Positions 8,220 to 23,819 of a stretch of DNA of 23,882 nucleotides are shown here, one piece after another. How positions within the stretch are numbered: the stretch's first letter is position 1; each line of letters starts with the position of its first letter. The stretch lies in IMG/VR virus record IMGVR_UViG_2585427765_000009; one strand, given 5' to 3'. Made by a program: the position numbers and the translations under genes. This DNA is from a virus (taxonomy: Duplodnaviria > Heunggongvirae > Uroviricota > Caudoviricetes). The notes under the pieces are model-generated. The model was not told where the DNA came from, did not search any database, and saw only the letters and a list, made by a program, of their open reading frames with translations.

Positions 8220-9728
8220 TTATTCTTCGGACTGGTCGTCGGTGTGCTGCGGCTCCTGTCGTTTCGTTGCGGCACTGCTGCCTCCTTTATCACTGGCCGG
8301 ATCGGTATCAAATACCAGATCCAGCTTGCGGTTTTCATCAATTTCGGCCTTGCGCCGACGTTTGACATCATCCGGATTACGACCACCAGCACGTACCCAG
8401 TCTGATTCTGTCGCCGCTCCACCACGAATCTGGATTTTCCAGGCCTCAGCCTCCTTAACAGGGTCAATCCACGGCATCACCGGTCCGGAATACACCGCGG
8501 TATACAGTGAAGAAAGGTCAAGATCGCGGGGTAGCCTGATAACACCGGATGCCACAGCCTGTTTCAGCCAGGCACGATACATCGGACGGGTGACGGCACC
8601 AATAAACCAGTCCTGCAGGATCAGGTAGCCATCAGTGGATTCAACCAGCTCCTGACGCTGGGCGCTGTAAGTGCCGTTATAGTTGCGCGCTGTACTGGAA
8701 AAACTCAGACGACTGCCCGCCGCCACGGCACGCAACTGACCATTACGAAAAGTTTCAAGGTTAGGATTTGGGCGATCCGACTTCACCATTCCGATTTCTT
8801 CGCCGGGTTTCAGATCATCGTAAATAATGCCTGGCTGAATGGTAAGCTCGCGTTCCTTATCCTTGCTGCCATTACCATCCGCTTCATAGCTCTGCCCGTC
8901 GCCTTTCCGGATGTACATCCCCAGAGCAGCGGCGATCCTTGCTGCAGTCAGCTCAGAATCTTCATACTCTTTCAGGGCACTGAGGCGGATCAGCACACCG
9001 GACAATAAAGACGTCCCGCGCATCTGGTGCAGACGGCGAACAAATTTAAGATGCAGCATTCGCTCTGCATCCACTTCTTTGGTTTCCATCTGCCGTCCGG
9101 ATACGGGACGGCTTTTATACACCAGATATTTTTCGGGACGCCCCCAGTCATCAACAAACACGCCCTGATTCAGCCTGTTGCTCTCATCACTGGTCATGGG
9201 AATAAAGTCCGGCTCGAGCGCCTCCAGCCAGAAATGAACACCGGCAGAAGGCGTCAGGCTGTTTATGCGCCCGGAAACCATCTGGGCAAACACCTCACCA
9301 TCGCGCAGCCAGGTACGAAGCATCAGACGTTCCAGCATCGGACGGGTAAACTGCCCGGTGACTTCCGGGCTGACAGACCATTCACTCCATCGGGTGCGAA
9401 TCTCCGCAGCCAGGTCACGGGCAATGGCCCCATTGCGTAATACCGGATGTGGCTCGACAATAATCCCGTTTTTCCCCACCACCCGTTCTTCCAGCTTGTC
9501 AAATACACCAATAACCAGATCGTGGTTGTTATCAAGGTAACGGGCCTGCTCACGTAACGACACGGCCCCGTACTGGCTTAACTGGTCGGCAGTTCGGTTC
9601 TCCCGTCGGGCTTTGTGTGTCCGCGTCGTTTTTACGGCCTCATAAGCCTGGATCACCGCACGGGAACGCAGCCTTGCCGCTTTCCATCCTGGTGAAAAAA
9701 CGCCAATCACATCATCAAGAATTGCCAT
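8220..9728 (-). CDS. Portal protein (lambda B-like)
   Basis: ~500 aa ORF between W-like gene and protease-capsid; start at MAILDD with ATGA overlap at 9728. Confidence 0.75.
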   Translation of the reverse strand: MAILDDVIGVFSPGWKAARLRSRAVIQAYEAVKTTRTHKARRENRTADQLSQYGAVSLREQARYLDNNHDLVIGVFDKLEERVVGKNGIIVEPHPVLRNGAIARDLAAEIRTRWSEWSVSPEVTGQFTRPMLERLMLRTWLRDGEVFAQMVSGRINSLTPSAGVHFWLEALEPDFIPMTSDESNRLNQGVFVDDWGRPEKYLVYKSRPVSGRQMETKEVDAERMLHLKFVRRLHQMRGTSLLSGVLIRLSALKEYEDSELTAARIAAALGMYIRKGDGQSYEADGNGSKDKERELTIQPGIIYDDLKPGEEIGMVKSDRPNPNLETFRNGQLRAVAAGSRLSFSSTARNYNGTYSAQRQELVESTDGYLILQDWFIGAVTRPMYRAWLKQAVASGVIRLPRDLDLSSLYTAVYSGPVMPWIDPVKEAEAWKIQIRGGAATESDWVRAGGRNPDDVKRRRKAEIDENRKLDLVFDTDPASDKGGSSAATKRQEPQHTDDQSEE

Positions 9729-9940: not shown

Positions 9941-12036
9941 AACCATCCTCCGGAAGTCAGCCAGGGGTTAACATCGTCAGTTACTGTTTTCTTCCGTTTT
10001 TGTTTTTTAACAGGCGTGGATACCGGTTCCGGTGAGGATGACGGTTCGGTACTGTCCGGGACACACTCCAGCCAGGTTTCCCGGCTCGCCCACTCCGGTG
10101 CATCCGGCCAGCGGATCTTTTCGTATCCATGCAGAATGACCAGAGCCTCGGCATACACCATCAGGTCAAAAGCTTCGTTGGCACCGCGACCCGGCTTACT
10201 CCATTTCCCGTCACTGCTCCGCTCTTCATACGTCAGTTCGTCGTAAAACCAGCTCCCCAGCCAGTCAGGGAAATGCACATAGCCTGGACCTGGCGAGTCA
10301 CGCCATAACGCGTTATTCACCCGGTCTTTCAGGGCATCCGTCTGAAGAAGCCAGAGCGGCACATCACCTGCGGCCTGCGCCCGGCGGCCCGTTCGTCCGG
10401 TGTTATCAGGGAATGTACGGCTGATCAGTTTTGCGCGCCGGATGCTGTCGCCCTTAAACAGGTAAATACGTTTACCAAGGCCATCACGACGGCAACGACG
10501 CCAGAATTTATAGGCATTATCAGTGACCCCGTCTTCACCGCCGGAGTCCACCGCCATTGCCATCAGTCGCATTTGTTGAGAAGGATCGGAGGCCAGCGGC
10601 CAGCTTTTATGAAAAACATCCGTCAGCAGGACATCCCAGTCTTCCGGATAGCTGGCCGGATCAATTCGCTGGCTCTCCCCGTCGCAGTCACTGCGCAATG
10701 ACTGCGTGATGTTGTAACGATCAATAATCCAGCGTTCGCCACGGCTGCCATAGCCCGTTACCTGAACCACAAAACGGCGATGACGTCCCGCCTGCACATC
10801 CACTGTCGCCACAAGGAAATTAACGCCATCTGGCACACTGCGGGAAGGAACTGGCTCTGCCCGCTGCTCAAGCAGTTCACTTTTTCGTTGCTCCATGCTG
10901 GCGCGGGGAAGATAAGGTAATCCCCAGTCGGTGTTGATAACCGCCCTGAGTGTTTCTTCACTTCCTGTCGCTTCATACTCCTGTTCTGCAGTCAGTAATT
11001 TGTAAACCAGTTGCGCCCAGGTCTGATACGCAGCAGCTGGCCCTTCCATCCAGAAACTGGCGATACGGGAGCGGCGCGGTTCACCGGAAACGTTGCCGTT
11101 ACGATCAATGACCTGACCTTCACGCAACCAGACTCCTGCACTATTGAGCTCACGCTTTTTCTCCGCAGTGATAATGCCGCTGCAGTGCGGGCAAAGTAGA
11201 TACGCCGCCTCACTGGCTTTAAAGGGATCCGGTTCATTACGGTAGCCGGTCATGGCATCCATAGCTGGCTGAAAATATTCACCGCAGTGCGGACATGGCC
11301 AGTACCAGCGGCGGCGGTCACCACGATTGTAAAGGGAAAGAATACCAGTCGTCGGTGGCGCTTCATGAGGCGACTTACGTCGCCATTTGCTGTCGCAGAT
11401 GTCACGTCCCGGCGAGCTCTCCACCAGAGTCATCCCGGCGGACATAAATGTGGTGGTACGTTTTGAGGCCAGGGAGAAACCATCACCCTCGCTGTCGATA
11501 TTCTCCGGAAAACGGTCGTAATCGGTTAAGGCGACAAACCGGTAATCCGACGACGACATAATGTTGACCGAGGGCCAACCAATTTTAAGGAACGAGCCAT
11601 CCCTGAACGTCTTATCATGGACATTATTGTCGTTACGACGTGGACTCATTCTTTTCTTTACCGCCGCACTGCTTCTGAACGTTCTGTCGAGGCGCTTTTT
11701 AGAATGCTCGCGGGCCTTATCTTCGGTCATCTGCACAACGAGCATGTCCGAAGGATCGCAAACGATGGTATAGACAATCCATCCATCGATCAGACCAATG
11801 GTCTTCCCTGTTCGCGCAGGACCAACAAAAATCACCGCATCGTATTCACGCGATGCCAGGCAGTTCATGGGCTCAATGATGTAGGGTGTCAGTTCAGGAT
11901 CCCATGGCACCGAGTTACCAGCCCCCTTGGGAACACGCATGAATTTTTTAACAGCCTCCGAAATCGGCATGCGACGTGGTGGGGAAAATCCTGCCGATAT
12001 GTCCCTTCCCAAATTTCGGGCTGATGAAAAACCCAT
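9937..12036 (-). CDS. Terminase large subunit (lambda A-like)
   Basis: 699 aa; SD AGGAGG before ATG 12036; Cys cluster CPHCGEYF...CPHC parallels lambda A ACPHCGEEQ. Confidence 0.85.
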   Translation of the reverse strand: MGFSSARNLGRDISAGFSPPRRMPISEAVKKFMRVPKGAGNSVPWDPELTPYIIEPMNCLASREYDAVIFVGPARTGKTIGLIDGWIVYTIVCDPSDMLVVQMTEDKAREHSKKRLDRTFRSSAAVKKRMSPRRNDNNVHDKTFRDGSFLKIGWPSVNIMSSSDYRFVALTDYDRFPENIDSEGDGFSLASKRTTTFMSAGMTLVESSPGRDICDSKWRRKSPHEAPPTTGILSLYNRGDRRRWYWPCPHCGEYFQPAMDAMTGYRNEPDPFKASEAAYLLCPHCSGIITAEKKRELNSAGVWLREGQVIDRNGNVSGEPRRSRIASFWMEGPAAAYQTWAQLVYKLLTAEQEYEATGSEETLRAVINTDWGLPYLPRASMEQRKSELLEQRAEPVPSRSVPDGVNFLVATVDVQAGRHRRFVVQVTGYGSRGERWIIDRYNITQSLRSDCDGESQRIDPASYPEDWDVLLTDVFHKSWPLASDPSQQMRLMAMAVDSGGEDGVTDNAYKFWRRCRRDGLGKRIYLFKGDSIRRAKLISRTFPDNTGRTGRRAQAAGDVPLWLLQTDALKDRVNNALWRDSPGPGYVHFPDWLGSWFYDELTYEERSSDGKWSKPGRGANEAFDLMVYAEALVILHGYEKIRWPDAPEWASRETWLECVPDSTEPSSSPEPVSTPVKKQKRKKTVTDDVNPWLTSGGWL

Positions 12037-13341: not shown

Positions 13342-13628
13342 TTTGTCGCTCCATGCGTTTGTTCTTCACTTGTCGCTAAAAATATAACTTCAAATCTTTG
13401 AGCGTGGAAGTGTGGAAGTCACTGCGCGTTGATCTTGCATACATCGGTCGTTTGTTTCCCCCCTGGCATATCAGAAAAACCAGGTTTTATAGCGGAATCA
13501 ATACTATGTATTTTCCACCTGACTTTTGACATAAATCATCAATAAAACATATAAAGGTCAGACCAGATTGAAACGATAAAAACGATCTTGCAAACTACGT
13601 GCCCTCATACCATATGGAAGGTTTATCT

Positions 13629-14039
13629 ATGGATCAGGTAGTCATTTTTAAACAAATATTTGATAAAGTTCGAAACGATTTAAACTATCAATGGTTTTAT
13701 TCTGAGCTAAAACGTCACAATGTCTCACATTACATTTACTATTTAGCTACAGATAATGTTCATATTGTATTAAAAAATGATAATACAGTGTTATTAAAGG
13801 GCCTAAAAAACATTGTGTCTGTCAAATTTTCAAAGGATAGGCATCTTATAGAAACGACCTCTAATAAGCTGAAATCCAGTGAGATCACATTTCAGGAATA
13901 CAGAAGAAACCTTGCTAAAGCAGGAGTTTTTCGGTGGGTTACAAATATCCACGAACAAAAAAGATATTACTATACCTTTGATAATTCATTACTCTTTACT
14001 GAAAACATACAGAGCACATCACAAATATTTCCACACTAA
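13629..14039 (+). CDS. Hypothetical protein, possibly DUF1398/YbcV-like
   Basis: 136 aa from ATG at 13629 with SD GGAAGG; only plus-strand gene in the phage; AT-rich; family guess from memory only. Confidence 0.45.
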
Positions 14040-14358: not shown

Positions 14359-14823
14359 TTATCTGAGGCATTGCTCTCGAATGTATAGCTGTGCCCCTTC
14401 AAGTTGTTTTTGCATTATTATCAGTCGCGCTCTGAGGGTGAAATAATCCCGTTCAGCGGTGTCTGCCAGTCGGGGGGAGGCTGCATTATCCACGCCGGAG
14501 GCGGTGGTGGCTTCACGCACTGACTGACAGACTGCTTTGATGTGCAACCGACGACGACCAGCGGCAACATCATCACGCAGAGCATCATTTTCAGCTTTCG
14601 CATCAGCTAACTCCTTCGTGTATTTTGCATCGAGCGCAGCAACATCACGCTGACGCATCTGCATGTCAGTAATTGCCGCGTTCGCCAGCTTCAGTTCTCT
14701 GACATTTTTGTCGCGCTGGGCTTTGTAGGTAATGGCGTTATCACGGTAATGATTCAGCCCCAGACTAAGCGCACCACAGGCCGCCAGCAGGGCAATGATG
14801 ACCACGCACAGTACGCGGTTCAT
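14359..14823 (-). CDS. Rz: Rz i-spanin
   Basis: N-terminal TM helix then coiled-coil periplasmic domain; contains embedded Rz1. Confidence 0.85.
14421..14603 (-). CDS. Rz1: Rz1 o-spanin lipoprotein
   Basis: Embedded in another frame of Rz; lipobox VVGC; PPPPP proline-rich stretch. Confidence 0.8.
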
Positions 14824-14824
14824 T

Positions 14825-14923
14825 TCACCACCAGCGTATCTGACCGATGAAATAACCGGAGGCCATAATCACAAACACCAGCCAGATAAGAATGAACTTC
14901 CAGGTGGATAATTTTTCAGCCAT
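14825..14923 (-). CDS. Small single-TM membrane peptide (32 aa) translationally coupled to Rz
   Basis: [32 protein letters not shown]; SD GGGAGA; stop overlaps Rz start. Confidence 0.45.
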
Positions 14924-15002
14924 CACTCGAATCTCCCGAATCAGTTTGCTAAAATCAAACACACTTTCTCCTTTGACTTTTCCGGAGTCAGGAGTCAGGA
15001 AA

Positions 15003-15040
15003 CACAAAACCCCGCTTGGTGCCAACAAACGGGGTTTTTA
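15003..15040. terminator. Bidirectional hairpin between endolysin and Rz
   Basis: AAAACCCCG...CGGGGTTTT stem with T-rich flanks on both strands. Confidence 0.45.
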
Positions 15041-15128
15041 CTTTTATTCACTTACGTTTCGCCAGTTCGCAGGATTTCATGTTATCCGCCCGCGTGGCCA
15101 TGCCTTATTTTTCAGCAAAATATTCTGC

Positions 15129-15662
15129 TTATCTGTCGATACCCCAGCACGCCAGCGCGCTCTCCTGGTCACGACGGGATACCTGACCGTAGCAGTTGTT
15201 TGAACGAATACGGCAGTCTCTGCCACCGTCCTTAATCCACCAGCGAATCGCCTCACACGCTCCCCTGCGATCACCTGCATTAATTCGTTTATAAAACGTC
15301 GACGGGAAACACTTACTGGGACCAATGTTGTACGGACAGAATGACGCGATCCCCGCTTTCTGGGGTTCGCTCAATGGCACTTTGATGTTTTTCTCCACCC
15401 ATGCCAGCGCCTTATCACGCTCAATGGCGTTGACCTGGTCGCATTTTTCCTTCGACAGTTTCATACCGGGAAAAACGGGTTTTCCATCCACCATCGTGGC
15501 CCCCCGACAGATGGTCCAGATGCCGGAACCATCGCGGTATGCCGTTGTGTGGTTACCCTCTTTTTCGTCCAGAAACTGGTCAAGTATCTGAGGAGCAGAC
15601 GCGCCTGCAGCAATCAGCGCCAGAACAGCAGCTGACAGGGCGTATTTGATTTTTGCGCTCAT
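15129..15662 (-). CDS. R: SAR endolysin (T4-lysozyme family)
   Basis: Ala/Gly-rich N-terminal segment YALSAAVLALIAAGASA; E...D...T catalytic spacing in EGNHTTAYRDGSGIWTICRG, as in phage 21 R. Confidence 0.85.
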   Translation of the reverse strand: MSAKIKYALSAAVLALIAAGASAPQILDQFLDEKEGNHTTAYRDGSGIWTICRGATMVDGKPVFPGMKLSKEKCDQVNAIERDKALAWVEKNIKVPLSEPQKAGIASFCPYNIGPSKCFPSTFYKRINAGDRRGACEAIRWWIKDGGRDCRIRSNNCYGQVSRRDQESALACWGIDR

Positions 15663-15717
15663 GGATATTTATCAGGATGCTACCAATGAAAGATACCGGA
15701 AAGCCAACTGCAAAAAG

Positions 15718-16032
15718 CTAACAACCCGTAATCGAGTTATCAGAACTGTTAATTTTTATGGTATACCGCGCCTCTGAACAGGGGCGCGTTTCTGGCAACA
15801 GCTCGTCCCCTTCACATAACCCGGCAGCAACATCCAGGAAGACCTGTCTGATGCTCCTTCTGGCTGCTGACTCATAAAACTCCAGCGCGGCACCTTCAAC
15901 ACGGTCCAGCGAGATGTCCAGGGCAAAAATTTCACCGTCAAAGCGTTTTTTGTCCCGTAACGCTAAAGTTACCGTAACTTTATTCTCAAAATTGCGGATC
16001 CCTTTCACAATCAGTTCATATTTTTGAGTCAT
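15718..16032 (-). CDS. Hypothetical soluble protein inserted between holin and endolysin
   Basis: 104 aa; ATG 5 nt after holin stop with SD GGGGAGAG; no TM or signal peptide. Confidence 0.6.
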   Translation of the reverse strand: MTQKYELIVKGIRNFENKVTVTLALRDKKRFDGEIFALDISLDRVEGAALEFYESAARRSIRQVFLDVAAGLCEGDELLPETRPCSEARYTIKINSSDNSITGC

Positions 16033-16036
16033 TGAA

Positions 16037-16252
16037 TTACTCTCCCCGTGCAGCCTTACGCTTGTCTTCTTTAATCTTGAAATAAAGGTTTGTCAGGTAC
16101 GTCAGCAGGCCAAATACCAGGCTACCCAGCACACCTATTGCTGCCCACTGTGAGGGCGTGACTTTATCGAGCAGCTGTAAAAACCAGTAGCCAGCACTGC
16201 CTGCGGAGGTGCCGTAGGCAATGCCTGTTGAAATTTTGTCCATGGATTTCAT
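16037..16252 (-). CDS. S: Pinholin, phage 21 S-type, dual start
   Basis: [71 protein letters not shown]; SD GGAGGTG; the ORF-track extension to 16309 is rejected. Confidence 0.9.
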
Positions 16253-16351: not shown

Positions 16352-16378
16352 AATATAAAAAGCTCGCCGTAGCGAGCT
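16352..16378 (-). terminator. Predicted intrinsic terminator between cargo lipoprotein genes and holin
   Basis: Minus-strand AGCTCGC-TACG-GCGAGCT followed by TTTTTATATT. Confidence 0.55.
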
Positions 16379-16503: not shown

Positions 16504-16899
16504 CTAACCTCGCATGTCAAAGCCAGATTTCTGAAAATCTCTGTAGACTTCCGGATTGTTGAAGGCCGGAAATTTGGCTTTATGAGCTGCGGACTTTATC
16601 GCTTCGCAATAGGCTTTATCACCGTTACTGGTAGATATTTTTAACGCCGTGCCATCCTGAGAGAATTCCATATGCAACCTGCATTTTTTCCCTTTCCAGT
16701 TATGCGGCTCATCAAGTTTGGCATTAATTGCAGCTCTGATTCCCCGCGCTTGCGCCCCCCATTCATCCTGATCATCCCAGCGTCCTGAACTGCAACTACC
16801 TGTAGCAGTAGTTTTGTGGCAATCTGAAGGGTGTAAAGGTGTGCATCCCGCAACAAAACCGACCCAAAAAGTCAACATAACGATTTTCTTTAATCCCAC
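16504..16899 (-). CDS. Lipoprotein with TolA domain III-like C-terminal domain (paralog 2)
   Basis: GTG start with SD GAGGAG; lipobox VAGC; C-terminal KGKKCRLHMEFSQDGTALKIS...YCEAIKSAAHKAKFPAFNNPEVYRDFQ aligns with the TolA C-terminus. Confidence 0.75.
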   Translation of the reverse strand: MGLKKIVMLTFWVGFVAGCTPLHPSDCHKTTATGSCSSGRWDDQDEWGAQARGIRAAINAKLDEPHNWKGKKCRLHMEFSQDGTALKISTSNGDKAYCEAIKSAAHKAKFPAFNNPEVYRDFQKSGFDMRG

Positions 16900-17049
16900 T
16901 TCTTGCTCCTCAATCCATTAAAATCTCAGCAATAGTAGTTGTTACGTCCGCCACTGGCTCAGAGCTGACTATCCGCTAAATTTAGCTCAGTGCCGTAGTT
17001 GTGTCAGAACAAACCTAAGCCGAAACCGTTTATTACAAAACAATAAATA

Positions 17050-17478
17050 TCAGGGTTTAAAATCCAGCACCCCATTTTGAAATACTTTATATACTTCCGG
17101 CGAAGGGGGGGCAGGTATATCAGCATTCTTTATCGCATTCATCGCTTCACGACATAAATCGAGGTCTCCACTTTCTCTTTTAACCTCCAGTAGAAGGCCA
17201 TTCGGGGCCATATGCATTCTCAGTGTACACTCTTTTCCTGAATACTTACTCGCATCCCCGAACTGTTTTTCGATGGCGCTCTTGATTTGATGGGCATACA
17301 GACGGATATCCTCACTAACATCAGAAGTACGTTCAGATGAACTCACATACTGTGTCTCTATTGCTTTATCGGAGTAATATGATGTACGGTCATGATAATT
17401 TGTCGATACAGCATCAGTGCACCCGATAATAATCCCACTAATAATCAACGTAAGAATTGATGCGCTACGAAAACCCAT
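17050..17478 (-). CDS. Lipoprotein with TolA domain III-like C-terminal domain (paralog 1)
   Basis: Lipobox IIGC; QIKSAIEKQFGDASKYSGKECTLRMHMAPNGLLLEVKRESGDLDLCREAMNAIKNADIPAPPSPEVYKVFQNGVLDFKP versus TolA QIKSAIESKFYDASSYAGKTCTLRIKLAPDGMLLDIKPEGGDPALCQAALAAAKLAKIPKPPSQAVYEVFKNAPLDFKP (recalled). Confidence 0.8.
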   Translation of the reverse strand: MGFRSASILTLIISGIIIGCTDAVSTNYHDRTSYYSDKAIETQYVSSSERTSDVSEDIRLYAHQIKSAIEKQFGDASKYSGKECTLRMHMAPNGLLLEVKRESGDLDLCREAMNAIKNADIPAPPSPEVYKVFQNGVLDFKP

Positions 17479-18475: not shown

Positions 18476-18552
18476 TGGCGCGCTGTACTGGATTCGAACT
18501 AGTGACCGATTGCTTAGAAGGCAATTGCTCTGTCCGGCTGAGCTAACAACGC
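18476..18552 (-). tRNA. tRNA-Arg, anticodon UCU
   Basis: 77 nt cloverleaf folded by hand: acceptor GCGTTGT/ACAGCGC, D-stem GCTC/GAGC, anticodon stem ATTGC/GCAAT, loop CTTCTAA, T-loop TTCGAAT, CCA encoded. Confidence 0.8.
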
Positions 18553-18652: not shown

Positions 18653-18728
18653 TGGTGGCCCTTGCTGGATTTGAACCAGCGACCTGGCGATTATGAGTCG
18701 CTCGCTCTCACCACTGAGCTAAAGGGCC
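18653..18728 (-). tRNA. tRNA-Ile2, anticodon CAU (lysidine type; software may call it tRNA-Met)
   Basis: 76 nt; near-identical to E. coli ileX as recalled; acceptor GGCCCTT/AAGGGCC, anticodon loop CTCATAA, T-arm GCTGG-TTCAAAT-CCAGC. Confidence 0.8.
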
Positions 18729-18871: not shown

Positions 18872-19693
18872 TTACCTAGTTACCTTTTTTAACTGCCGCT
18901 CAGCCCATGCTTCTTCAATATCAAACCGGGTCACCAGCGCATCATAGAATTTCTTAACTGTTTTTTCCCATGACGCGCGTGTTATCTGGTTTGTCACCTC
19001 GCATATAGCATTAAATGCCTCCGTTGATGGTAGTCTTTCATAGCCACGACCACCACAACGCTGGCAGTCTCTGATAACAGGCATACCACGTTTTACCGAC
19101 TCTTCACGGTGAATGGCGACACCACGCCCACGGCAATCCTTACAGGCGGTGGAAACCTCACCCTTTCCGCCACACTCCGGACAGGCAACTTTTACCACCT
19201 CCCTGACTTTTTTCCATTCTTCCCAGTAAGACGGATACACACCTTTCGTACACTTTGCCCATACCGGCGGCTTACCATCCGGATACTGGACCTTGTTTGT
19301 AAAAACTACGCTTTCAATAAATTTTTCCCCATAGCAACAAGGGCACTGCTTTTTACTCGCTGCGCTGCGGGCATAATCCTCAAAAGCGTACGAAGCCATA
19401 ATGCGCATCACTACCGGTTTTATTTCTGCCGGAAGTTTTCTCAACGCCGCCACACGATCGCACCGACTGAGTGCATAATCTGCCAGTAATTCTGTTGCCC
19501 GCGCCCTGTCATTCATACTGATGCCCATTTTCCCCAGGAACGCAGAAAACCCCATCTCAGCCCGATTCTGTGTCATGCCCTGCGCGGCCATCACATCAGT
19601 GATACTCAGCGCATCTTTTGACGTTGAGGCCGATGCATCGGTCAGGCAAGGGGATTTTGGGGAGTAGTATTTCGGTAAATCTTCCAGTTTCAT
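18872..19693 (-). CDS. Late-gene antiterminator, Q-like (Cys-rich, zinc-binding type)
   Basis: Position between rusA and pR'/tR'; CxxC clusters CPCC, CPECGGKG, CKDCRGRG, CQRCGGRG; ATGA overlap with rusA stop. Confidence 0.65.
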   Translation of the reverse strand: MKLEDLPKYYSPKSPCLTDASASTSKDALSITDVMAAQGMTQNRAEMGFSAFLGKMGISMNDRARATELLADYALSRCDRVAALRKLPAEIKPVVMRIMASYAFEDYARSAASKKQCPCCYGEKFIESVVFTNKVQYPDGKPPVWAKCTKGVYPSYWEEWKKVREVVKVACPECGGKGEVSTACKDCRGRGVAIHREESVKRGMPVIRDCQRCGGRGYERLPSTEAFNAICEVTNQITRASWEKTVKKFYDALVTRFDIEEAWAERQLKKVTR

Positions 19694-21864: not shown

Positions 21865-22020
21865 TTACTCCTCAGGTTCGTAAGCTGTGAAGACAGCGAC
21901 CTCCGTCTGGCCGGTTCGGATTCGTACCTCGCAGAGGTCTTTCCTCGTTACCAGTGCCGTCACTATGACGGTTAAACAGATGACGATCAGGGCGATTAAC
22001 ATCGCCTTTTGCTGCTTCAT
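21865..22020 (-). CDS. hok: Hok/Gef-family type I toxin (HokD/RelF-like)
   Basis: MKQQKAMLIALIVICLTVIVTALVTRKDLCEVRIRTGQTEVAVFTAYEPEE, near-identical to Gef/HokC as recalled; SD AAGGAGAAG; ORF-track start at 22077 is an in-frame upstream ATG. Confidence 0.9.
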   Translation of the reverse strand: MKQQKAMLIALIVICLTVIVTALVTRKDLCEVRIRTGQTEVAVFTAYEPEE

Positions 22021-22671: not shown

Positions 22672-23484
22672 CTAGACACTTCCGAGCCGCTGATAATATT
22701 GTTTTTCGTATTCAGTTGGTGGCATATGATCACTCGAACCATGCCGACGCTTACTGTTATAAAACATTTCGATGTAATCAAAAATATCACCGCGAGCTTC
22801 TTCTCGCGTTCCGTAGATCTTTTTCTTTATCCGTTCACGTTTCAGTAACTGGAAAAAACTTTCTGCGACTGCGTTGTCATGACAGTTACCGCGACGGCTC
22901 ATACTGCCCTCCAGCCCGTGTGATTTCAGGAACGACTGCCACTCATAGCTTGTGTACTGACTGCCTTGATCAGAATGAACCAGCACCTGCTTTTGAGGAT
23001 TACGTCGCCACACGGCCATCAGAAGTGCATTCAGGACAATATCCTTTGTCATCCGGGGCTGCATTGACCAGCCAATAACTTTGCGCGAGAACAGGTCAAC
23101 AACCACAGCCAGATACAGCCAGCCTTCGTGAGTCCGGATGTAGGTGATGTCCGTTACCCAACGCTCATCCGGTGCTTCCGGGTTGAACTGCCGCTGGAGC
23201 CTGTTGGGCGTCACGATGCTGGTTTCACCCTTACGTGCCCGTGGGCTACGGTACCCGACCTGAGCCCTTATCCCGGCACGCTTCATCAGTCGCCAGACAC
23301 GGTTAACTCCGCACTGTTGTCCGGTATCCCGCAGGTCGAGGTGGATCTTGCGATAACCATAAACGCAACCCGACTCCAGCCAGAACTGCTTTATCAGCCC
23401 CGTCAGTCTCAGGTCAGCATGATGCCGCCGTGAATCCGGCTGCTGAAGCCAGGCGTAAAAACCACTCGGATGCACATCCAGCAC
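22672..23484 (-). CDS. IS3-family transposase orfB (DDE domain); true N-terminus supplied by frameshift fusion with orfA
   Basis: WVTDITYIRTHEGWLYLAVVVDLFSRKVIGW...HSDQGSQYTS...NAVAESFF motifs. Confidence 0.85.
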   Translation of the reverse strand: MLDVHPSGFYAWLQQPDSRRHHADLRLTGLIKQFWLESGCVYGYRKIHLDLRDTGQQCGVNRVWRLMKRAGIRAQVGYRSPRARKGETSIVTPNRLQRQFNPEAPDERWVTDITYIRTHEGWLYLAVVVDLFSRKVIGWSMQPRMTKDIVLNALLMAVWRRNPQKQVLVHSDQGSQYTSYEWQSFLKSHGLEGSMSRRGNCHDNAVAESFFQLLKRERIKKKIYGTREEARGDIFDYIEMFYNSKRRHGSSDHMPPTEYEKQYYQRLGSV

Positions 23485-23540
23485 CCGACAAAGCAGTCGG
23501 ACAGGCCAGCAATGGGTGTTGTCACGGATAAAGGCGTACC

Positions 23541-23819
23541 TCAGTCGGACAGCTTTGCGAAGTACGCCGCGGCTTTTTTTAATATGTCCCGTTCGTCGGT
23601 AACCCGCTTCAGCTCTTTCTGGAGGCGTCGGATCTCAGCCTGAGCGTCTGACTGGACTTTATTGGTTGAGGAATCCGGGCCATATGCCTTTATCCAGGCA
23701 TAAAGACTGTGGGTGGTGATACCGAGACGTGTTGCCACGCTGGAAACAGAATGGCCGCGATCAACAACCTGTTTTACCGCTTCAATTTTAAACTCTTCGG
23801 GATAACGCTTACCGCTCAT
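23541..23819 (-). CDS. IS3-family transposase orfA
   Basis: HTH region plus leucine-zipper-like C-terminus ending AAAYFAK; SD GAGAGGTG; ORF-track GTG at 23825 or ATG at 23819. Confidence 0.85.
   Translation of the reverse strand: MSGKRYPEEFKIEAVKQVVDRGHSVSSVATRLGITTHSLYAWIKAYGPDSSTNKVQSDAQAEIRRLQKELKRVTDERDILKKAAAYFAKLSD

Follow-up and report, generated by a model that had tools for sequence, protein, structure and literature searches.

Organization of the lysis cassette

The window, that is, the whole stretch of DNA analysed here (23,882 nucleotides; IMG/VR virus record IMGVR_UViG_2585427765_000009), contains a complete lambdoid lysis cassette, all on the minus strand, in which a pinholin gene is followed by a DUF1327 gene, a SAR lysozyme gene and Rz/Rz1. 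The pinholin gene (16037..16252) encodes a 71-aa protein of the S21 type (PF04971, E 8.7e-36; PHROG holin families) with the characteristic dual start Met1/Met4 (MKSM) and a charged C-terminal tail, and it is annotated as essD in an identical genome. Directly behind it lies a gene of the YdfR/DUF1327 family (15718..16032, minus strand), which starts with ATG, stops with TAG at 15718-15720 and encodes a soluble protein of 104 aa. According to the initial annotation, a soluble 104-aa protein is encoded between a pinholin of the phage 21 type and a SAR endolysin, and both this reading and the boundaries of the ORF are correct, the minus strand having been left unstated.

The junction of the two genes reads CGG GGA GAG TAA TTCA ATG on the minus strand. 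The spacer is therefore 4 nt long and the ATG begins at the fifth nucleotide, so that the earlier description of a start 5 nt past the holin stop was essentially right, if one nucleotide too long as a spacer. The same annotation had credited the gene with its own Shine-Dalgarno (SD) sequence and with co-expression with the lysis genes. Both proposals are well founded, as a strong SD, GGGGAGAG, lies within the final holin codons (16040..16047, minus strand) and is predicted to form an anti-SD duplex of -8.5 kcal/mol, and the gene is almost certainly part of the late lysis transcript. The absence of a TM segment was likewise upheld, the maximum 19-residue Kyte-Doolittle mean being 0.77 for the DUF1327 protein, while the holin reaches 1.72 and the SAR endolysin 1.78; nor does the protein have a TM, SAR or signal segment of the antiholin type, as in S21-71, T4 RI or Mu releasin.

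Downstream of the DUF1327 gene, a 55-nt non-coding spacer (15663..15717, minus strand) ends in the conserved SD-less leader CTGATAAATATCC before the ATG of the endolysin gene R. R (15129..15662, minus strand; annotated rrrQ) encodes an RrrQ-type SAR endolysin of 177 aa (PF00959) with an Ala/Gly/Ser-rich SAR helix at its N-terminus, where the Kyte-Doolittle maximum falls at residue 9. The cassette is completed by the Rz i-spanin gene (14359..14823, minus strand; PF03245, E 1.4e-52) and, embedded within it, an ORF for the Rz1 o-spanin (14421..14603, minus strand), recognized by sequence only from its lipobox (LVVVGC) and proline-rich composition.

The intervening gene encodes a YdfR/DUF1327 protein

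The window protein matches the Pfam family DUF1327 with an E-value of 1.9e-37 and 127.8 bits (gathering cut-off 25), residues 1-96 aligning to positions 1-90 of the 93 in the model, and it matches PHROG 2735 with an E-value of 1e-53. Further PHROG matches, with no function assigned, have the N-terminal 85-93 residues in common and range in length from 105 to 296 aa. At the DNA level, the match to a stretch of E. coli E203449 is 100%. There, RefSeq annotates an identical protein as 'DUF1327 domain-containing protein', its gene flanked by essD and rrrQ within a prophage that occupies the Qin locus and adjoins rspAB and ynfA. Among 34 DUF1327 alleles, a rough estimate of dN/dS came to approximately 0.4-0.45 for the domain and the tail alike. 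A chance ORF or mis-call is ruled out by the Pfam and PHROG scores, the conservation and a dN/dS below 1. We are nearly certain that the window gene is a typical representative of the YdfR/DUF1327 family that had been annotated before, its accessory status included.

An AF2 model based on a 22-sequence alignment contains strands at residues 5-15, 18-27 and 34-43 and a helix at residues 50-74. Mean pLDDT is 70, with 10-residue blocks of 73-90 over residues 1-70 and values below 50 for residues 75-104. Together, the alignment, the model and the identity to YdfR of K-12 delimit a conserved N-terminal domain (residues 1-72; 15817..16032, minus strand) that is near neutral (pI 8.1) and an acidic C-terminal tail (residues 73-104; 15721..15816, minus strand; pI 4.4), whose sequence and length vary among cassette variants. 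As modelled, the window protein thus shows a conserved domain of ~72 residues with a beta-beta-beta-alpha arrangement, followed by a variable acidic tail that is predicted to be disordered.

Invariant residues in the Escherichia members include K10, G11, R13, N14, E16, K18, F31, G33 and E34, as well as the block E46-G47-A48...F52-Y53-E54...A57. Among the distant members, only Y5, Y53, E54 and A57 are invariant besides the initiator Met, with L7 and G47 nearly so; the basic residues K10, R13, K18 and K28, conserved in the Escherichia members, are not conserved in the distant members of 72-76 aa.

Searches by sequence returned no relatives of solved structure, the best match being to Rab proteins at E 0.79, and Foldseek comparison of the AF2 model with PDB and BFVD gave nothing at E<=0.001, the matches being generic or weak. 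A dsRBD, which has an alpha-beta-beta-beta-alpha fold, was also considered and rejected, as the window protein showed no significant similarity to it in fold or sequence. No holin or lysis family was matched in Pfam or PHROGs, and neither the window protein nor three longer variants (P0052, P0132 and P0123) matched any PADLOC defence model.

DUF1327 genes are a common component of Escherichia lysis cassettes

The initial annotation took S directly followed by R as the norm for cassettes of this type and regarded the gene as an unusual insertion. Direct succession of S and R does hold for phage 21 and for DLP12, in which essD overlaps rrrD, but it is not general in E. coli. In a census of 5,426 complete E. 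coli genomes, the S21-type pinholin gene was found at 16,904 places in 5,166 genomes, the DUF1327 domain at 8,486 places in 4,338 genomes (~80%) and the RrrQ-type lysozyme at 11,152 places in 4,428 genomes. Roughly every second pinholin cassette therefore has a DUF1327 gene, and the notion of a rarity is further countered by the Qin prophage of K-12, in which the order essQ-ydfR-rrrQ has been annotated for decades.

DUF1327 is also present in 101 phage records, among them mEp460, Perceval, BP-4795 (ORF47), H-19B and many Stx1/Stx2 phages, and in more than 563 IMG/VR contigs. The family as a whole is small, with 243 clusters at 90% identity, and an exhaustive profile search of 1.84 billion proteins yielded 76 representatives at 50% identity. 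When one genome per species was scanned, DUF1327 was confined to Escherichia and Shigella apart from two MAGs labelled Veillonella and Bacillota. In both of these it is accompanied by E. coli-like S and R genes, and they are presumably mis-binned.

Typically, the gene sits directly behind a class II holin/pinholin and in front of an RrrQ-type lysozyme in lambdoid phages and prophages of Escherichia/Shigella. Of 92 loci, 90 place the DUF1327 ATG exactly 4 nt past the pinholin stop; the other two have no match to an S21-type holin, one of them (L090) ending at a contig edge. Where the endolysin side seems to deviate, the prophage is degraded, R being interrupted by an IS in one case and a deletion being present in the other. 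Across these loci, DUF1327 alleles are 56-100% identical and the paired holin alleles 77-100% identical with no co-variation between them, so that the two types reassort freely and a physical interaction with the holin is not indicated. Six database proteins of 106-175 aa (P0002, P0006, P0049, P0100, P0103 and P0205) carry PF04971 and DUF1327 in one chain; these are probably not real fusions but products of frameshifts, lost stop codons or sequencing errors where the two genes meet 4 nt apart, or of calls from an upstream start.

From this comparison of the cassettes of related prophages, the DUF1327 gene is a conserved part of this cassette type, namely an optional yet very common third gene of Escherichia lambdoid cassettes between the holin and an RrrQ-type SAR endolysin. 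The suggestion that it could be a late-expressed cargo protein is a fair description. The value of the locus as a discovery is small, as K-12 and thousands of other genomes already have annotations for the gene and its family in this position. Family and arrangement being already known, only the SD capture and the hot spot of convergent ORFs described below go beyond annotation.

The DUF1327 gene occupies the SD that serves the endolysin in cassettes lacking it

The SD embedded in S serves the DUF1327 gene in the window, mEp460, BP-4795 and K-12, whereas in phage 933W, which has no DUF1327 gene, it serves R. The predicted anti-SD duplexes range from -8.5 to -9.5 kcal/mol for the DUF1327 genes and R of 933W (-8.5 for the latter), compared to only -2.8 kcal/mol for R in the window and -2.8 to +1.1 kcal/mol for R across the window, mEp460, BP-4795 and K-12. 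Comparison of the sequences shows that the DUF1327 gene has taken over the SD used by R in cassettes without DUF1327, leaving the R start SD-less. With R SD-less in the one type and served by the strong S-embedded SD in 933W, the translation regime of the endolysin would differ between the two cassette types. R lacks an SD in every DUF1327-bearing cassette examined (window 15663-15692, minus strand; loci L001, L002, L004 and L101).

The region between the DUF1327 domain and R is hypervariable. In blastn comparisons, homology to K-12 and other cassettes breaks at approximately codons 69-84 of the DUF1327 gene and is not regained until 10-16 nt ahead of the R ATG, defining in the window a segment from approximately codon 69 to approximately 10 nt before the start of R (15673..15826, minus strand). 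The distance from codon 72 of the DUF1327 gene to the R ATG is 154 nt in the window and 91, 92, 179, 458, 469, 472 or 657 nt in other versions of the slot. In the longer versions, either the ORF is extended to 114-206 aa or a convergent small ORF lies inside (PHROGs 21218, 2411 and 2572); the window has no such ORF. Across these otherwise unrelated spacers, 12-16 nt before the R ATG are kept as a conserved AU-rich leader, ATAAATATCY.

Distant relatives and convergent ORFs

Stand-alone DUF1327 relatives of 72-76 aa exist outside the Escherichia-type lysis slot. In a Cronobacter prophage the gene directly follows Rz, and elsewhere it is found among tail genes, either between I and J or between L and K. 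The DUF1327 domain is therefore not confined to lysis cassettes. In one further lineage, DUF1327 follows a holin of a different family (PF16080, 101 aa) and precedes an RrrQ-type lysozyme. In all of these contexts, the gene is in late-gene orientation. Ten contigs of this lineage (e.g., L102:2677-3837 and L103:981-2140) have two overlapping DUF1327 ORFs, one of 72 aa and one of 96-107 aa, and the split gene could be a frameshifted pseudogene or the product of a programmed frameshift.

In seven contexts, comprising long-spacer Escherichia S-R slots, the Cronobacter post-Rz site and the tail-gene sites, a small convergent ORF follows DUF1327, immediately in six of them and after the second DUF1327 ORF in L102. 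These ORFs are located at L045:3312-3551(-), L006:3311-3589(-), L007:3500-3766(-), L093:1469-1765(-), L096:4243-4524(-), L098:4273-4821(-) and L102:3465-3725(-). Six of the seven belong to six different PHROGs with no function assigned, and the ORF in L102 is unclassified; in the distant contexts, the ORFs downstream of DUF1327 are those of PHROGs 25324, 10490 and 18578 and the unclassified ORF, of 86 aa. No common partner was found among the opposite-strand ORFs beside DUF1327, those assigned all falling into differing PHROGs. The 3' flank of DUF1327 looks like a hot spot for the exchange of cargo, and DUF1327 itself behaves like late-region cargo at recombination hot spots.

Other features of the window

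Several other features were noticed while the window was being analysed. An insert of ~300 nt separates R from Rz (14824-15128, minus strand), two genes that overlap in mEp460 and K-12. It contains a small ORF (14825-15028) with a hydrophobic segment, apparently TM, whose product matches phrog_6632 (function not assigned) over its last 45 aa. The insert also has a strong hairpin of 13 bp (15006-15038), and in L103 the corresponding position holds a called gene of 45 aa. A gene with DUF1398 (YdfO-like; 13599-14039, plus strand) lies between Rz and the terminase genes, in the same place as ydfO in the Qin prophage of K-12, and is another opposite-strand cargo gene of the late region.

Upstream of the cassette, a terminator-like G+C-rich hairpin with a T-run (16361-16378) lies just before S. 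Two tandem ORFs (16504-16899 and 17050-17478, minus strand) with TolA C-terminal domains and lipoprotein-like N-termini are found between the holin and the Q/tRNA region, the second being called a truncated pseudogene by RefSeq. Both resemble cargo of the late region and might be relevant to the Tol-Pal system or to colicin/phage entry. Downstream of the Q antiterminator gene (18872-19693) are two phage tRNA genes (18476-18552 and 18653-18728, minus strand), for tRNA-Arg (UCU) and for a tRNA with a CAU anticodon that is Met according to ARAGORN and Ile according to RefSeq, the latter tRNA presumably being lysidine-modified Ile2. At the end of the early region, hokD and an IS3-family transposase gene (~21865-22020 and 22672-23819, coordinates offset from the annotation of L003) directly adjoin chromosomal rspB in the identical genome, which suggests that the prophage is truncated there; a tape-measure pseudogene lies at the other end.

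Possible function of the DUF1327 protein

DUF1327, which many Shiga-toxin phages and ~80% of the complete genomes of E. coli possess, sits in the cassette responsible for the timing of lysis and, where Stx phages are concerned, of toxin release. The name DUF1327 occurs in a single genomics paper, and the only functional study of the family that was found is that of Göpel et al. (RNA Biol 2026; PMC13232886). In that work, residues 1-72 of K-12 YdfR were recovered in a two-hybrid screen with RNase G (Rng), the paralogue of RNase E, as bait; YdfR fusions were positive with Rne constructs in the bacterial two-hybrid assay, and the authors conclude that YdfR binds Rng and, preferentially, the N-terminal domain of Rne. 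Rne1-598 also co-purified with Strep-YdfR. The Strep-YdfR eluates also contained DNase-resistant nucleic acid, for which the authors could not exclude a contaminant carrying RNA, while overexpression of YdfR changed few transcripts and left growth unaffected (PMC13232886).

Based on these reports and the comparisons described above, it appears reasonably likely that the DUF1327 protein, its identity as described included, is a non-essential accessory that acts on a cytoplasmic host target and not on the lysis machinery. RNase E or RNA is the leading candidate for this target, although that specific identification is possible but doubtful. DUF1327 is translated from the strong SD that lies within the final codons of the holin gene, the protein presumably being made in quantity late in infection from a Q-dependent late transcript. 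Residues 1-72 might then engage the catalytic N-terminal half of RNase E, as K-12 YdfR reportedly does, and RNA decay or processing could thereby be modulated during late phage development. The experiments behind the choice of RNase E come from a single paper and an overexpressed, tagged K-12 YdfR (PMC13232886); the window protein differs from K-12 YdfR at 15 of the 72 domain residues and has another tail, and the basic residues K10, R13, K18 and K28 are not kept in the distant members. An accessory role in general must also contend with the near-invariant slot between holin and endolysin, which recurs behind a second holin family and could mean a role related to lysis. In a more elaborate proposal, which we regard as rather unlikely, DUF1327 would be a late RNA/RNase E-binding factor that protects or processes the long late transcript by engaging the catalytic half of RNase E, or that times translation of the SD-less endolysin message by which it is always followed in Escherichia, with the 3' flank of its gene possibly being a dedicated hot spot that exchanges convergent cargo genes from many unrelated families.

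The initial annotation had also raised the possibility that the gene regulates lysis timing. By analogy with T4 RIII, the protein might act in trans by binding either the holin, at its cytoplasmic C-terminal tail, or the SAR endolysin, no later than its insertion into the membrane, and so delay or sharpen triggering. Consistent with this idea, the Escherichia position is always right after the holin and before the RrrQ-type endolysin, even behind the PF16080 holin, and DUF1327 would be co-translated from a strong SD. Extra regulators have moreover been reported for SAR-endolysin cassettes, for instance that of Mu (PMC9239132). However, conserved S and R flanks would carry any gene between them along during mosaic recombination, which makes position weak evidence for function, and 933W lyses with the same types of S and R and no DUF1327 gene.

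A 2014 CPRG screen for envelope leakiness also bears on this point, as the Keio ydfR deletion mutant is listed among its hits, in the supplementary tables only and not in the main text, while essQ, rrrQ/ydfQ and ydfP are absent from its text-format supplementary files. Since the start of rrrQ, the SAR lysozyme gene, overlaps the ydfR stop in K-12, the simplest reading of this phenotype is a polar effect in which the promoter of the kan cassette would drive rrrQ, which would explain the hit equally well. Together with the existence of 933W, the free reassortment of DUF1327 and holin alleles without co-variation, the second holin family and the relatives among tail genes or after Rz lean against an essential or holin-specific role in lysis, and we consider a lysis-timing regulator unlikely.

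A different explanation places the effect on the dosage of the endolysin, which would be lowered or delayed because R is displaced from the holin-embedded SD in cis, possibly together with binding of RNA at the SD-less R leader in trans. The loss of an SD before R in the window, mEp460, BP-4795 and K-12 compared to 933W, the conservation of ATAAATATCY before the R ATG across unrelated spacers and the co-purification of RNA with K-12 YdfR (PMC13232886) all fit such a scheme. Nonetheless, it seems improbable, as a pure cis role would leave unexplained why a conserved domain is under purifying selection and why members of the family occur far from any endolysin gene. In addition, the overlap of ydfR and rrrQ in K-12 suggests coupling, as opposed to the 55-nt gap in the window, and no single cis mechanism fits the variants.

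It is similarly improbable that the gene is a moron that serves in lysogenic conversion, defence or counter-defence and benefits the host when expressed from the prophage (e.g., in stationary phase or stress). In favour of this reading, distant members sit in classic hot spots for morons in tail operons, each by a variable small opposite-strand ORF, and the GC content of the DUF1327 gene is slightly lower than that of S, R and Rz (0.47 vs 0.50-0.54). In vitro, RNA polymerase with sigma-S showed a preference for transcribing the CFT073 homologue c1434 (PMC3141248), and ydfR is among the tabulated candidates for streptomycin 'survival genes', with an MIC increased 3-fold (PMC12924614). Against it, the 4-nt gap to the holin stop leaves no room for a promoter of its own, only a weak G-U-rich hairpin (15718-15743) and no convincing terminator is found at its end, ydfR reads are almost absent from K-12 RNA-seq data under standard growth (PMC13232886), and there are no PADLOC matches.

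Should the RNase E/RNA lead or an effect on endolysin dosage prove true, either would amount to a new layer of late gene control in lambdoid phages.

Comparison with known systems

The co-antiholin RIII of T4, a small protein of the cytoplasm, binds holin T at the cytoplasmic domain of the latter and is not known to be encoded in a lysis cassette. It offers a conceptual precedent for the possible modulation of a holin by a phage protein that is small and soluble, with no relation found in sequence or fold to the window protein. Known modulators of RNase E comprise Dip of phiKZ, gp0.7 of T7 and Srd of T4 among phage proteins, and RapZ, RraA and RraB among host proteins. Dip binds the C-terminal scaffold of RNase E and gp0.7 is a kinase, and the phage modulators are products of early genes, unlike DUF1327 with its late gene position. 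Homology of the window protein to any of these six proteins was not detected, Pfam giving DUF1327 only and the fold match to Dip being weak.

The relative that gives the family its name is K-12 YdfR (b1555; UniProt P76160) of the Qin cryptic prophage, which belongs to the same Pfam family and, like the window protein, is encoded by a gene whose ATG lies 4 nt past the pinholin stop. The two proteins are 64% identical over 99 residues (BLASTP E 4e-45), with 57 of 72 positions (79%) identical in residues 1-72, whereas past approximately residue 72 the C-terminal tails are unrelated; likewise, the ydfR stop overlaps the rrrQ start in K-12, where the window has a 55-nt spacer instead. Much closer is gp55 of mEp460 ('YdfR family protein'), which is 96% identical and has the same length of 104 aa and the same 55-nt spacer. 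The versions in BP-4795 and Stx phages are ~56% identical to the window protein and have a variant tail, for a total of 114 aa. Along with mEp460, Perceval, BP-4795 (ORF47) and H-19B (in which the ORF is unannotated) carry DUF1327 in the same slot and are viable lambdoid/Stx phages.

Phage 21 and the essD-rrrD cassette of DLP12 have the same pinholin family but no DUF1327 gene, with R directly after S. A further comparison is with 933W, which has the same gene types as the window without DUF1327, its pinholin being identical at 57 of 71 positions and its R at 164 of 177 (93%). The R ATG of 933W lies 4 nt past S, at the position held by the DUF1327 ATG in the window, and the S-embedded SD and 4-nt spacer are the same, serving R in its place. 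Because 933W uses the same types of pinholin and endolysin in the absence of DUF1327, the gene would seem dispensable for lysis, and the protein is probably not needed for lysis itself. To judge from its sequence, the 933W cassette is a natural 'deletion' comparator for DUF1327, and 933W on the one hand and BP-4795 or mEp460 on the other thus represent natural variants of the cassette without and with the gene.
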